A DNA stretch of 64,000 nt from Flaccisagitta enflata (GCA_965153355.1 OZ231126.1:22320001-22384000), one strand, 5' to 3'; positions 54,631 to 63,398 are shown, counted from the first letter of the stretch. Translations and numbers: made by a program. Notes: generated from the sequence alone by a model not told the origin.

Positions 54631-54715
54631 ATGTCTGCAATTGACAATGATGAAGAATTTGATGTCATCATGCTTTCAGATCCAGAGTCCGACGACGAAG
54701 ATGAATCAAACGACG
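54631..54715 (+). CDS. DNMT3: DNMT3-family DNA (cytosine-5) methyltransferase, exon 1
   Basis: CAAAATGT start context, MSAIDNDEEFDVIMLSDPESDDEDESND, donor G|GTAAGT (phase 1) compatible with exon 2. Confidence 0.75.
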
Positions 54716-54748
54716 GTAAGTATCGTGTATGTGTTTGCTTATCTAATA

Positions 54749-55160
54749 CTACACGAATTAAAAAAAAAAGACGCACTTTTGAATGGTTGATTGCGCCATT
54801 GAAAATTGAAAAAACTAACTAAAATCTCAGACCATTTTGAAGCCCTTCAAAAACTCTCTCATTTGGCGCCAATCTGGTATCTCTATCTTTTTTCGTTTGG
54901 AAATGGCATTAGTTTGAGTAAAAATGTTGCCAAATTTGTTTTTGCAGTCCCTTTGAAAAAGATGCAATTCAGCAAAATGGTGTCTCACTTTAAAGAGCTC
55001 TAGCTCCTAAACTGTTAAAGATACAGATCTGGGATTGGTCTAGAATGAAAGATGATTTGAAAATCTACAAAAACACTGTCTCTGTAAAATTTTTTTGATA
55101 CTTTTAAAGTCAGTTTTATCAGCAAATAAAAAGGTGCGTCTTTTTTTTTAATTCGTGTAG
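54749..55160. mobile_element. Tc1/mariner-type MITE in DNMT3 intron 1
   Basis: TA|CTACACGAATTAAAAAAAAAAGACGCAC...GTGCGTCTTTTTTTTTAATTCGTGTAG|TA. Confidence 0.85.
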
Positions 55161-59200: not shown

Positions 59201-61194
59201 GAAAAACTCTGGATGGTAAAAGAAGTCGTAAAAGGAGATTGAGTCGTGGAACAAATTTGATTCGTGAGGAAGAAGTCGTAATCATTTCGTCAGCCTCGGA
59301 AAATGAAGACGATGATGGAAGAATCAAAGAATTCAATGTTTGTCGCAAAAATGGCGAAAACGGCACCAACGGATCTCACCGTGGCCACGGCAGTAACGGT
59401 AGAGAGAACAATATCAGTAGAGATGGTAAAGACGGCAAAAACGACACAGAGACCGACAACTGCCGTTACCCATATGGAACATCCAACGTTGACACGAACA
59501 ATTCGATCATCGATGGAACCGCGGCTGAAATGGCAGCTGCTGACGCTGCTGCTGCTACCGTTGCCGCGGCATTCGACGCTGGCGCAGCGGAGGGCGACAG
59601 CACATCAAAGGAAACCGTAAAAAAATCAAATAAAAGAGCGCGGGACTCTGAAGATGACGACGATAACGATAACGACGGTAATATGGACGTTGAAGATGAC
59701 GATGTTTTAGTGATAGAGGAACATGGAGGGCAAAACGGCCCGAAACGAATGAAAAGGGGCAACGAAAAGAAACGAAAGTGCTCTTCTTCCGTAGGTACCA
59801 ATGAAGGAGAAAACATCGGTTTAAATGAACGTAATCAGTCTAAGCACAGTGACTCTAGTCAAAAAGACCCATCCGATGACGAAAAGGATGAGCCACGTGG
59901 TTGGGATCAGACAACGCTCGGCAATAGAACGGTAGAGACAGGCAAATCTAGTCAAGGAGGGACAGATGATGACACAAGGAATTCTAAAGATGACGGAAAC
60001 AGACAAAAAGAGATCGTTAATGACAATGAGACAGCGAATGATCAGGGAAACACAGATGGACAAGCTGAAATAAAAAATCCACAGAGGTCTGAGAATGACC
60101 ATGGTGACCCGGCAGACACCCAAAAAGACAAAACAAGATCTCAAAAAGACGACACAGAATCGGAAAAAGACAAAGGCAATCGCGATGAACGGAAAAAAGA
60201 TAACAAAAGACGCGGTAGTCATTCTTCAACGACTAATTATGTCATCTTTGAACGTAAAATCTACTCTACAACAAAAACAATTCTCACTGCGGCGAAAATC
60301 AAGAAAATCAAAGAAACGAAATTGACAAAAAAGACAAAGTTGATGAAAAAGACGAAATTAACGAAATTGAGGACATTTCCCGGAGGAAGGAAAGTCACGA
60401 AATTCCAAACTTCATCTTCTTCTTCCTCATTATCATCTTCATCTTCAACTTTTGATATTTTGGCAAACAAAAAGGGCATAAAGAGGAAGAAACAATCATT
60501 TGACCCATCTATTGACGCCTCCGTCGGTCCATCGATCCGTCCGTCTGATGATGACAGTTCCACGCCATCTATCGGTCCGTCTGTTAGTCCCATCGCCGGC
60601 CCATCTACACGCCATTTACGTGAACCCAAGATTATTTTGTTGGATCAATCCAAAGAGATTCCAAAGGAAAATGCTTTAGGCGCGGGAAAGGCTGATGAGG
60701 AAGTACCGCCGTTATCAAAGAAAAGACGCACGGCAAAAAAAATTGCTGAAAATTTCAATTGTGAAACGGCTTCAATCAACAGAAAACGGCAAATTCAATT
60801 GAAACCGTGTATCGTCAAGCTGTGTGATATTTCAAAAACCAAAAAGTGGCGGAGTTATTTCTGTCGGCGTCAAAATCTTAACAACAACAACAACAACAAC
60901 AACAACAACAACAACAACAACAACAACAACAACAACAACAACAACAACAACAACAGCAACAACATAAACAACAACAGCAACAACATAAACAAAAAGACAA
61001 ATCTCATTAAACTTCCTCCATGGCAACTCCGCGATTCACCTTTAGAGATTCCTTTGCAAGTCTCAGGCAATTCCAGCGCCGGTCTTCATTTGTCTCCTCC
61101 TCCTCCTCCTCATCAACGTCGTCCAGTCAGAGTCCTTTCCCTCTTCGACGGAATATCATCGGCAATTGTGGCTTTGAAGGCCCTCGGCATTGAG
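56294..61194 (+). CDS. DNMT3: DNMT3-family methyltransferase, exon 2 (4.9 kb; long acidic N-terminal region plus motif I)
   Basis: Acceptor ATGCAG| phase 1, uninterrupted ORF, ends [26 protein letters not shown] (cf. DNMT3A [25 protein letters not shown]), donor GAG|GTATGC (phase 0). Confidence 0.92.
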
Positions 61195-62255
61195 GTATGC
61201 GTGCGAAGGATAGATTACCGACAGTAAATCAGCCTTATTTGCATATTGTTGTAAACAAAAGTTTTTCATTCACATTGACCTGGGAACATTTGAATATAGC
61301 TAAATTCAGTAATAAGCGACATGAACCACTTACACTAGCTGTGAGAAGGTTCCTGAGAGATTTTGCCTCCACTCTTTTGAGAGCAAAAGGAAACATCTTA
61401 ATGATGAAAACGGACACCATTCTTCATAATGAAATATAAAAATAATTTGCATTCGAACTGGGTGAAATCTGGGCGCGCTTGCTGCGATCTTGGCAAGGCA
61501 GGCTGATCCTGCAATCTCGGCACAGGAGTGCACCAAAAGGTCATGTTGAATAACTAAATCAAGACAATCGGCAGAGAGGATCAGAAGCCCTACTAGTTAT
61601 GGGGAGCATCCACTTATAAGGAATATTCCGCCTTTTCACCTTCTTCTCCACCGCCCTCCCTCCCATTCATTATTTCTTTTGGGCAGCGGCCCTGGATACC
61701 AAATGGGGAAATTTTCTCCTCTGTGTGTGTGTGTGTGTGTGTGTGTGTGTGTGTGTGTGTGTGTGTGTGTGTGTGTGTGTGTGTGTGCGTGCGTGCGTGC
61801 GTGTGTCGTCTCTGTATCTCTGTATCTCTGTCTCTCTGTTTCTCTCTCTCTCTCTCTCTCTCTCTCTCTCTCTCTCTCTCTCTCTCTCTCTCTCTCTCTC
61901 TCTCTCTCTCTCTCTCTCTCTCTCTCTCTCTCTCTCTCTTTGTCTGTCTCTCTGTTTGTCTGTCTCTCTCTTTCTCTGTCTCTTTGTCTGTCTCTGTCTC
62001 TTTGTCTTTCTCTGTCTCTCTCTCTCTCTCTCTCTCTCTCTCTCTCTCTCTCTCTCTCTCTCTCTCTCTCTCTCTCTCTCTCTCTCTCTCTCTCTCTCTC
62101 TCTCTCTCTCTCTCTCTCTCTCTCTCTCTCTCTCTCTCTCTCTCTCTCTCTCTCTCTCTCTCTCTCTCTCTCTCTCTCTCTCTCTCTCTCTCTCTTTTTC
62201 TTTCTTTCTCATTCACTCGTTATTTCTTTCACTCCTACCCCCCCCCCCCTGCAAG

Positions 62256-63398
62256 GTCCAAAGCTACGTCGCCTCCGAAATCGACCCCAACGCCATCCGT
62301 TGCAGTCGTCGCAACTTCCCTCAAGTCGTTCGTCAAGTCGGCGATGTTCGCGAATTGAACGAGTCCCGCCTCCGCAAGTTTGGTCCTTTCGATTTGGTGG
62401 TCGGCGGATCTCCTTGTAACGACTTCAGTCGCGCCAATCCCAACAGAGAAGGATTTGCCGGCAAAAACGGGAAACTCTTCTTCGAGTACGCGAGAATTTT
62501 GAACATTTGCCGCGTTTTGCACGAAGAAGAGGCGCAACAAAAAGAAGCGAATCGCGAAACGGCCGTCGACGGATGCCGGACGGAGTCTTCAAAGGTGGAA
62601 TCGACTGCCAATTGCGCCGGCCTTGGCGAGAGTGGCAACTGTGCTGCATCTTCAATCAAATCAGCCACGCCTTCTTCCCTCCAATCATCATCTACTCCCT
62701 CCTTTAATCCATCTTCAACTTCCTCAACTTCAACTTCCTCATCTTCCTCAACTTCAATTTCCTCATCTTCAACATCCTCCTCATCTTCAATTGCCTCATC
62801 GTCAACTTCAACTTCAACCACCTTCTCTTCTTCTTCCTCTTCAAACCTCATTCCCGCATCCACTCTCACGCCATCTGTCGAGTATCCTTTCTTTTGGTTC
62901 TTTGAAAATGTTCAGATGGATCACGAGGATCGGCAGACGATTTCCTTTACTCTTGGATGCGAGCCTTTGCCTTTAGACGCCATTCATTTAAGTCCAATGA
63001 GAAGAAAGCGTCTCTTTTGGTCCAACATCCCTCTACCTTACGAAGTGCTGCGTCCGGAACCGGATGCTCAACTGCGTCTTCAAGACGTCCTCGAAGTAGG
63101 TCGTCGGGCCAGAGTCGTCAAAATTCGCTGCATCACCACGAAAACTAACAGTTTCTATCAAGGATTCAGCAAATCGCCGCAACATCCCGTCGATGACGCG
63201 GATGGAAAACCGGATGTGTTGACGATGAAGGAGGTGGAGAGATGCTTTGGGTTTCCGGATGATTACACCAAAGTCGCGTCGACTTCAATTGACGTCAGAC
63301 GACATTTGCTGGGAATGTCGTGGTCAATTCCATGCGTCAAATTTCTCTTTAGCGCTCTTAAAGATTATTTTTCAGAGTCAAACAAGGAGAAAAAATGA
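62256..63398 (+). CDS. DNMT3: DNMT3-family methyltransferase, exon 3 (catalytic domain)
   Basis: Acceptor CCTGCAAG|, VQSYVASEID, VGDVR, GPFDLVVGGSPCNDFS (catalytic Cys), LFFEY, PFFWFFENV, RKRLFWSN, KIRCITTKTNS, EVERCFGFP, LLGMSWSIP...LKDYF; colinear with the DNMT3A C-terminus. Confidence 0.97.
   Translation, partial: VQSYVASEIDPNAIRCSRRNFPQVVRQVGDVRELNESRLRKFGPFDLVVGGSPCNDFSRANPNREGFAGKNGKLFFEYARILNICRVLHEEEAQQKEANRETAVDGCRTESSKVESTANCAGLGESGNCAASSIKSATPSSLQSSSTPSFNPSSTSSTSTSSSSSTSISSSSTSSSSSIASSSTSTSTTFSSSSSSNLIPASTLTPSVEYPFFWFFENVQMDHEDRQTISFTLGCEPLPLDAIHLSPMRRKRLFWSNIPLPYEVLRPEPDAQLRLQDVLEVGRRARVVKIRCITTKTNSFYQGFSKSPQHPVDDADGKPDVLTMKEVERCFGFPDDYTKVASTSIDVRRHLLGMSWSIPCVKFLFSALKDYFSESNKEKK

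Follow-up and report, generated by a model that had tools for sequence, protein, structure and literature searches.

A DNMT3-type DNA methyltransferase gene with a giant N-terminal region and no detectable PWWP or ADD domain in Flaccisagitta enflata

The window analysed here is a 64,000-nucleotide stretch of Flaccisagitta enflata DNA (GCA_965153355.1 OZ231126.1:22320001-22384000), rich in microsatellites and repeats. It contains what looks, from its sequence, like an intact three-exon gene for a C5 DNA methyltransferase of the DNMT3 type. The gene is on the + strand and has GT-AG introns of compatible phase (Table 1). Its spliced coding sequence of 6129 nt translates into 2042 aa with one stop, at the end, which agrees with the original prediction of three phase-compatible exons and about 2040 aa. 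An in-frame TAA lies 9 nt 5' of the ATG of exon 1, whose donor is G/GTAAGT (the slash marks the splice junction); exon 2 has a CAG acceptor after a pyrimidine tract and a phase 0 donor, GAG/GTATGC; exon 3 has an AAG acceptor after a C-rich tract and ends in TGA, followed by TAA. Exon 2 lies within an open frame of 1661 codons, far above chance length at about 41% G+C, and the longest open reading frame (ORF) in the other frames across it encodes 148 aa. This open frame spans both the N-terminal region and methyltransferase motif I, which were correctly predicted to be continuous. DNA contigs from two runs of the same organism contained no indels over 59066-61700. No reads were found on 59066-62014 among 12.2 million records (about 6% of the run) of one RNA run from the same study, a search made without a positive control.

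Exon 3 matched the Pfam family PF00145 (E 2.8e-19). A phmmer search of PDB with this exon returned 56 distinct sequences at E ≤ 0.001, the best being DNMT3C, DNMT3B and DNMT3A (9.6e-57 to approximately 1e-52), with mouse DNMT3C (8tci_A) as the top match. Other enzymes followed at lower significance: plant DRM2 at 1e-15 to 1e-18 and M.HhaI at approximately 3e-5. The match was interrupted, covering residues 1-87 and 209-373 of the exon. These comparisons place the gene product in the DNMT3 catalytic family, nearer to DNMT3 than to DRM or bacterial enzymes. Of the columns that do not vary in a 38-sequence DNMT3 alignment, all 27 were kept in exon 3, among them the PC in motif IV, ENV, the two Arg residues of RxR and the Trp of motif X. 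LFDGISSA, GGSPCND, FFENV and RRKR were all present, as expected from the earlier claim that motif I (FDG), PCN, ENV and RxR had been retained.

Several positions in the catalytic domain were unusual. The second Gly of motif I was replaced by Ala, a residue found at that position in 11 of 245 compared DNMT3-like proteins, including an amphioxus DNMT3. The peptide KIRCITTK, previously taken to contain the equivalent of DNMT3A R882, proved to lie opposite the target recognition domain (TRD) loop of DNMT3B and DNMT3C (kvrtittk/kvqtittk), and that assignment has to be withdrawn. In the HMMER alignment the residue in the R882 register (the Arg of 'mgRgarqk') was Ile (tsIdvrrh); 118 of 170 compared proteins had Arg there. 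At the registers of DNMT3A R882 and R891, the present protein has Ile and Met, respectively. A Ser-rich insert, not described in the original prediction, was missing from canonical DNMT3 proteins and from every relative examined. Inside it was an in-frame candidate intron of 288 nt (62595-62882), with AAG/GTGGAA at its 5' end and a pyrimidine-rich tract before GTCGAG/ at its 3' end; if it is spliced out, only about 25 of the roughly 120 aa of the insert would remain.

The earlier finding that the N-terminal region has no PWWP signature and no multi-CxxC ADD finger held in Pfam searches, in profile alignment with a positive control, in Cys counts and in tblastn over the window; no PWWP or ADD fold was detected in exon 2 by Pfam, hhalign or PDB phmmer. 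Pfam identified no family at E ≤ 1 in the 1633 aa of exon 2, and NCBIfam no model. The 1644 aa before motif I contained no CxxC, 20 Cys in total and at most four Cys in any 140 aa, and no WW-like motif was found in this N-terminus; 142 of 156 canonical DNMT3s had 5-6 CxxC within the 330 aa before motif I. A PWWP-ADD profile was built from 60 regions picked at random from 136 eligible canonical ones, with the sponge Oscarella left out as a control. Only the final 17 residues of the N-terminus aligned with this profile in hhalign (E 5e-4), with no alignment to ADD, and the Oscarella control aligned with a probability of 100% (E 8e-54). Except for two chance-level matches (E 0.42 and 0.9), phmmer against PDB matched exon 2 at residues 1598-1633 only, where the linker and motif I lie. 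Eleven canonical DNMT3s, with ADD in all 11 and PWWP in 10 by precomputed Pfam annotation, were compared by tblastn with the whole window. They matched the three catalytic segments only, all else being at E ≥ 1, which indicates that there is no reader-domain exon within 54 kb upstream.

A HMMER search against 1.84 billion cluster representatives gave 5732 matches at E ≤ 0.001. Among the best 150 of these, only two were closer to the window protein than the Oscarella protein (51% identity, with ADD): a 160-aa fragment with 99% identity (P0014) and a 527-aa protein with 58% identity (P0015). With P0015 as the query, three further proteins of 521-532 aa (P0176, P0177 and P0178, 75-80% identical to P0015) and a fragment (P0179) were recovered. 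PF00145 was the sole family in P0015, P0176, P0177, P0178 and P0179, which lacked ADD and PWWP; the other 115 P0015 homologues among the matches listed each had an ADD family. The proteins of the P0015 family are marine, with JGI, Logan or ENA as their source. Their full ORFs were on contigs of 1.7-2.2 kb, and ENA members of the same cluster were 187-aa pieces on contigs of 3.4-5.0 kb, sizes which suggest that the short contigs are spliced transcripts. A 161-nt piece with two differences from the window was found in a marine metagenome run, indicating that the organism or a close relative is marine. A scan of metagenome contigs gave 41 loci, none of the reader-less subfamily; those checked had ADD-like exons or were other DNMT3s.

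In a tree of 28 catalytic domains (P0010, P0103 and P0097 were skipped, their motif IV not being matched by the pattern), the window protein and the P0015 family formed a clade with support of 100/98. The next branch was the reader-less P0117, on a long branch (89/84), and the whole group was placed weakly with tunicates (83/84). P0117 and P0295 (590-591 aa), on marine metagenome or transcript contigs, represent a second, strongly diverged DNMT3-like lineage in which ADD and PWWP are likewise missing; its N-terminus is Asn/Lys-rich and a Cys-rich insert precedes ENV. CxxC clusters were missing from nine of the 206 DNMT3-like proteins in which motif I is preceded by 150 aa or more: six members of the P0015 family, P0117, a Pinctada protein with a retained PWWP, and P0151, which matches over the full length of the general C5-methylase model.

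The relationship to the P0015 family extended beyond the catalytic domain. The N-termini were collinear, with an (E/D)-rich segment, D(V/I)(I/V), an acidic segment, hydrophobic-(A/S)DD(D/N), a second acidic segment and a basic segment in the same order. This alignment to P0015, P0176, P0177 and P0178 crosses the junction of exons 1 and 2, and thereby supports exon 1. The approximately 45 residues before motif I were also collinear (PPWQL... here, PWQLNKYLPEVQ... in the P0015 family), and in a profile of the family the residues before motif I aligned with the canonical post-ADD linker at 84% probability. Alignment with this linker, together with the fact that the nearest relatives are all animal DNMT3s, suggests that ADD was lost secondarily and its flanking linker kept. 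In these alignments the loss of reader domains appears as a trait of the lineage, shared with the P0015 family and not special to the present gene, which is itself a member of that family with about 1400 aa inserted between the N-terminal motifs and the linker. An AlphaFold2 (AF2) model of P0015 from a 38-sequence alignment had predicted local distance difference test (pLDDT) values of 86-98 in the methyltransferase domain and below 50 in the N-terminus, and Foldseek placed DNMT3B/3A first for this model (TMt 0.93). A co-fold prediction of two P0015 catalytic domains scored 0.53, and one control scored 0.46.

There are 1644 aa before motif I in the window protein compared to about 235 aa in the four full-length relatives. 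The original prediction described this region as an array of short linear motifs, and analysis did find many repeated short motifs and no detectable fold. One of these was an amphipathic-helix motif (Table 1). A loose pattern for it had 10 matches, compared to 0.055 expected and a maximum of 2 in 2000 shuffles, and a strict pattern had 6 matches compared to 0.001 in shuffles. The tandem repeat finder TRF detected no DNA-level tandem repeat under the array except a 21-nt array at 57838-57947. The hydrophobic residues are spaced i, i+3/4, i+7/8, i+11, the spacing of a putative docking helix, and may resemble AKAP-type or LxxLL-type motifs. When exon-2 aa 230-860 (aa 259-889 of the 2042-aa protein) were modelled with AF2 and no alignment, mean pLDDT was 35 and there was no compact fold; a helix was predicted on all 11 listed motif instances when these were mapped onto this low-confidence model, a hint of isolated helices only.

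A second recurring element resembled SUMO-interacting motifs (SIMs), the consensus of which is a [VIL]x[VIL][VIL] or [VIL][VIL]x[VIL] core with acidic or Ser flanks. There were five SIM-like cores (VIMLSDPESDDEDE, IEVIELSDDEDND, DDIEII, VVIISSASENEDDD and DDDVLVIEE), compared to 0.7 in shuffles, and a count of five was reached in one of 2000 shuffles. The remaining inserted region was made up of two poly-Asn runs and several basic runs resembling nuclear localization signals (NLS). No homologues of exon 2 (898-2858 aa) were found at E ≤ 0.001 among 8000 candidates, a search in which low-complexity words may have displaced relatives, and ESM Atlas gave no usable match for exon-2 aa 230-860.

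Variation among the DNA contigs differed along the coding sequence. The contigs of the two runs showed 41 substitutions over 59066-61700, of which 32 in the coding part were listed. These 32 variants (59100-61191) comprised 12 synonymous and 20 nonsynonymous changes over 454 and 1673 sites (pN/pS approximately 0.45). Among the listed variants in aa 1519-1661 there were 6 synonymous and 5 nonsynonymous changes against a site ratio of 1:3.7 (pN/pS approximately 0.2), and this proximal part is clearly constrained. In aa 964-1354, which belong to the inserted part, the listed variants were 6 synonymous and 15 nonsynonymous (pN/pS approximately 0.7). The insertion is constrained only insofar as its frame remains open.

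Table 1. Features of the DNMT3-type gene and its product in window coordinates
Feature	Position	Strand	Description
Exon 1	54631..54715	+	ATG, 28 codons + 1 nt, ends in phase 1; codes for the N-terminal acidic/hydrophobic module including VIMLSDPESDDEDE
SIM-like motif 1	54664..54705	+	VIML then SDPESDDEDE; hydrophobic core, acidic/Ser flanks
Intron 1	54716..56293	+	1578 nt; contains MITE-like element, (GGTC)36 array and one dispersed-repeat copy
Exon 2	56294..61194	+	4901 nt, 1633 full codons; disordered N-terminal region continuous with motif I
SIM-like motif 2, IEVIELSDDEDND	56464..56508	+	Same regular expression
Amphipathic-helix motif array, 10-13 copies	57082..58713	+	aa 292-835; consensus [VI]A.(D/N)V(V/M)(E/K)(H/Y)LL.E(V/I)
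Poly-Asn run	58923..59077	+	In-frame (CAA)52
SIM-like motif VVIISSASENEDDD	59275..59316	+	Same regular expression
SIM-like motif DDDVLVIEE	59704-59715	+	Same regular expression
Second poly-Asn run	60880..60985	+	In-frame (AAC)35
Conserved linker (PPWQL...) and motif I (LFDGISSA)	61015..61164	+	Aligns with PWQLNKYLPEVQ of the P0015 family and post-ADD linker of canonical DNMT3
Intron 2	61195..62255	+	1061 nt; about half is (TG)n and (CT)n microsatellite
Exon 3	62256..63398	+	380 codons + TGA; motifs II-X of the DNMT3 catalytic domain
Motif IV, GGSPCNDFS, catalytic Cys	62403..62429	+	PDB alignment and invariant columns
Ser-rich insert, about 120 aa	62514..62885	+	Between motif V helix and motif VI (ENV)
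Motif VI, PFFWFFENV	62886..62912	+	PDB alignment and invariant columns
Motif VIII, SPMRRKRLFWSN (RxR; RRKR)	62991..63026	+	PDB alignment and invariant columns
TRD loop, KIRCITTKTNSF	63120..63155	+	Aligned with DNMT3B lkkvrtittksnsikqg
TSIDVRRHLLG segment and motif X GMSWSIPCV	63282..63338	+	Residue in R882 register is Ile

A non-LTR (long terminal repeat) retrotransposon of the long interspersed nuclear element (LINE) type was found on the - strand at 45291-50080, with three long ORFs, one gag-like and the others coding for an endonuclease (PF14529) and a reverse transcriptase (PF00078/RVT_1); its nearest Atlas clusters were mostly arthropod. In its endonuclease-reverse transcriptase region the observed/expected ratio (o/e) was 0.27 for CpG and 0.99 for GpC. 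CpG o/e was 0.97-1.28 in the DNMT3 exons and 0.97-1.41 in four other gene-like ORFs. The CpG depletion of the LINE could be the expected footprint if germline methylation falls on transposons and not on genes. The main text of PMC12344493 describes DNMT3s carried inside transposons in some eukaryotes; this arrangement was rejected for the present gene, which has introns and has the LINE 4.5 kb upstream of it, on the opposite strand.

Other elements were also present. A dispersed repeat of about 220 bp resembling a short interspersed nuclear element (SINE), with a (GGTC)n/(GACC)n microsatellite, had at least 10 copies in the 64 kb with 75-87% identity (63400-63800, 55189-55504, 30143-30342, 26436-26675, 24979-25210, 9260-9467, 5707-5840 and others); one copy was in intron 1 and one directly 3' of the DNMT3 stop. 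Intron 1 also contained an element resembling a miniature inverted-repeat transposable element (MITE), at 54747-55162, with perfect 22-nt terminal inverted repeats extending to about 34 nt. At 27845-28684 (+) lies an acidic ORF in which the motif K(R)KxS(I/V)Y(N/S)RLFDHL(E/D) occurs four times; Pfam gave nothing above threshold for it, and it could be one exon of a repeat protein. Between the LINE and the DNMT3 gene was an ORF of 305 codons (50418-51335, - strand); it matched no Pfam family, and its CpG o/e of 1.53 was the window's highest. Rfam gave no matches in the window.

The reading considered reasonably probable on these sequence features is that the gene encodes an active reader-less DNMT3 that is brought to transposons by docking motifs. 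The sequence analysis shows the structure of the gene, a DNMT3 catalytic domain with its catalytic motifs intact, the lack of PWWP and ADD, and membership of the family; activity and docking are inferred. In this marine animal lineage, DNMT3s have lost PWWP and ADD, with the short post-ADD linker as a remnant of the ancestral N-terminus. A disordered region with SIM-like hydrophobic motifs in acidic/Ser-rich flanks and basic NLS-like runs precedes this linker in the family, and the present gene then gained about 1400 residues, including the helix array and the two poly-Asn runs, between the N-terminal motifs and the linker. The enzyme would be active and most likely targeted to transposons by protein-protein docking through short motifs instead of by reading histone tails, with SUMOylated chromatin proteins or another factor of a silencing pathway as the docking partner. 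This reading is consistent with the combination of transposon-only methylation and the same domain loss in chaetognaths. A more specific version, in which the reading of histones was exchanged in this lineage for the reading of a protein modification and a SIM-like cluster at the conserved N-terminus, multiplied in the giant paralogue along with a multivalent helix array, brings the enzyme to SUMOylated silencing complexes on transposons, for example downstream of piRNAs, would be unlikely.

Several observations weigh against the docking interpretation. The regular expressions for the helix and SIM motifs were written post hoc, after the motifs had been seen, and under the strict SIM rule the short relatives had 0-1 match each, which is not significant. 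These relatives (521-532 aa) do not have the helix array, which is therefore dispensable for the family, and in aa 964-1354 the inserted part is indistinguishable from neutral. The 120-aa insert, the motif I Ala and the Ile and Met at the R882 and R891 registers could reduce or change activity. The exon chain and its expression are predictions from DNA. The search covered the 64-kb window, and a canonical DNMT3 elsewhere in the genome may accompany the gene. The original prediction that the enzyme is aimed at transposons remains plausible given the low CpG o/e of the LINE relative to the gene-like ORFs, a footprint based on this one element.

It is fairly unlikely that the giant N-terminus is instead mostly a neutral low-complexity expansion, or partly intronic, with a working protein of the approximately 525-aa architecture and no targeting role for the array or the poly-Asn runs. 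This explanation, under which an isoform lacking most of exon 2 may exist, agrees with the roughly 235 aa and missing array of the four full-length relatives, with pN/pS near 0.7 on the 21 listed variants of aa 964-1354, with the mean pLDDT of 35 in aa 259-889 and with the in-frame GT...AG candidate intron in the Ser-rich insert; microsatellites abound in the genome, and poly-N, poly-Q and poly-S runs occur in further ORFs of the window too. However, more than 1400 codons have stayed open with no stop, frameshift or observed indel polymorphism, and the DNA that underlies the 10-13 copies of the helix motif is not itself repeated, which suggests maintenance and not recent tandem duplication. 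A catalytically weakened accessory subunit, a partner of an active paralogue in the manner of DNMT3L or DNMT3B3, appears decidedly unlikely. The insert does adjoin the motif V helix, motif I has lost a Gly, and the R882 register holds Ile where most compared proteins (118/170) have Arg, but the catalytic Cys of PCN, ENV, RxR, the motif X Trp and all other invariant columns are kept, and the motif I Ala also occurs in 11 of 245 DNMT3-like proteins such as that of amphioxus. DNMT3L and DNMT3B3 have lost catalytic motifs, which the present protein has not. Six chaetognath paralogues with a possible division of labour, as given in the main text of PMC12460157, would suit an accessory role. Very improbable is an unexpressed or decaying paralogue, a young pseudogene. 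The gene is known from DNA alone, its insertions and low-complexity runs are unusually large and a repeat element stands immediately 3' of its stop codon, yet the ORF of 2042 codons is intact over three exons with good splice sites, and the conserved proximal and catalytic parts show a synonymous excess (6:5 among the listed variants of aa 1519-1661, against the 1:3.7 site ratio).

An open question in the few animal lineages with transposon-only methylomes is what directs de novo methylation to transposons when PWWP and ADD are missing. The present gene and its short relatives supply concrete features with which to approach it, namely a conserved set of acidic motifs at the N-terminus, the post-ADD linker that has been kept and a large multivalent motif array that is found in the present paralogue. 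If the motifs do target the enzyme, a DNMT3 can be re-aimed through docking alone, and if SUMO is what is read, an animal would be using SUMO to direct de novo DNA methylation. If the motifs do not target it, the gene is a well-documented case in which a disordered region has expanded to an extreme while the rest of the enzyme stayed conserved.

Comparison with known systems showed both precedents and differences. The short proteins P0015, P0176, P0177, P0178 and P0179 share with the window protein 58% catalytic identity, the lack of ADD and PWWP, the acidic N-terminal motifs, the PWQL linker and the ARILNICR helix; in contrast, about 235 aa precede motif I in them, and the helix array, the poly-Asn runs and the Ser-rich insert are missing. 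Canonical DNMT3A and DNMT3B are 44-47% identical in the catalytic domain and share all catalytic motifs and the linker before motif I, and the window protein differs from them in its lack of PWWP and ADD, its 1644-aa N-terminus without a detectable fold, the 120-aa insert before ENV and the Ile at the R882 register. Unlike DNMT3L and DNMT3B3, it keeps PCN, ENV, RxR and motif X. DNMT3C retains ADD, which the window protein lacks as well as PWWP, and the present gene is not a muroid gene. According to PMC11401227 and PMC11099192, mouse DNMT3C, a DNMT3 paralogue that lacks PWWP, acts specifically on young retrotransposons in the germline. Animal DNMT3s carry PWWP and ADD and protist and algal DNMT3s have no companion domains, as the main text of PMC12344493 describes; the present protein resembles the latter in having a catalytic domain without an identifiable reader domain, but it is nearest to animal DNMT3s and keeps the animal post-ADD linker, which points to secondary loss and not primary absence. 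The text of a Xiphinema preprint, in which nematode candidates were screened for canonical domains including PWWP and ADD, places canonical DNMT3s in basal clades only. In the main texts searched, with supplements and figures outside the search, no further animals that have lost both domains and no SIM-based recruitment of DNMT3 were found.

The closest precedent is in the chaetognath Paraspadella gotoi. The main text of PMC12460157 reports that ADD and PWWP have been lost from all six copies of chaetognath DNMT3, that methylation in P. gotoi is restricted to transposons, as in early nematodes and ctenophores, and that DNMT3.1 and DNMT3.4 mark germline clusters; its authors link the domain loss to the transposon-only methylation, and its methods mention AT-rich, low-complexity stretches in P. 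gotoi transcripts. Like DNMT3.1-3.6 of that species, the window protein has an animal DNMT3 catalytic domain and has lost both reader domains, and the P0015 family may be the chaetognath DNMT3 family of that study. A giant N-terminus, helix arrays and SIM-like motifs are not mentioned in its main text, the comparison being by description only. The original prediction had proposed a candidate undescribed system. That part did not stand as far as the reader-less, transposon-aimed animal DNMT3 is concerned, which is already published as a concept in PMC12460157 and is also represented by the reader-less P0015 family. The part that stood is the giant form: as far as the searches show, the giant paralogue with its helix array and catalytic-domain insert, the conserved N-terminal motif set and the retained post-ADD linker are not in print. 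The gene thus looks like an unusual variant of a known oddity, the reader-less DNMT3s of arrow worms, and not like a new system.

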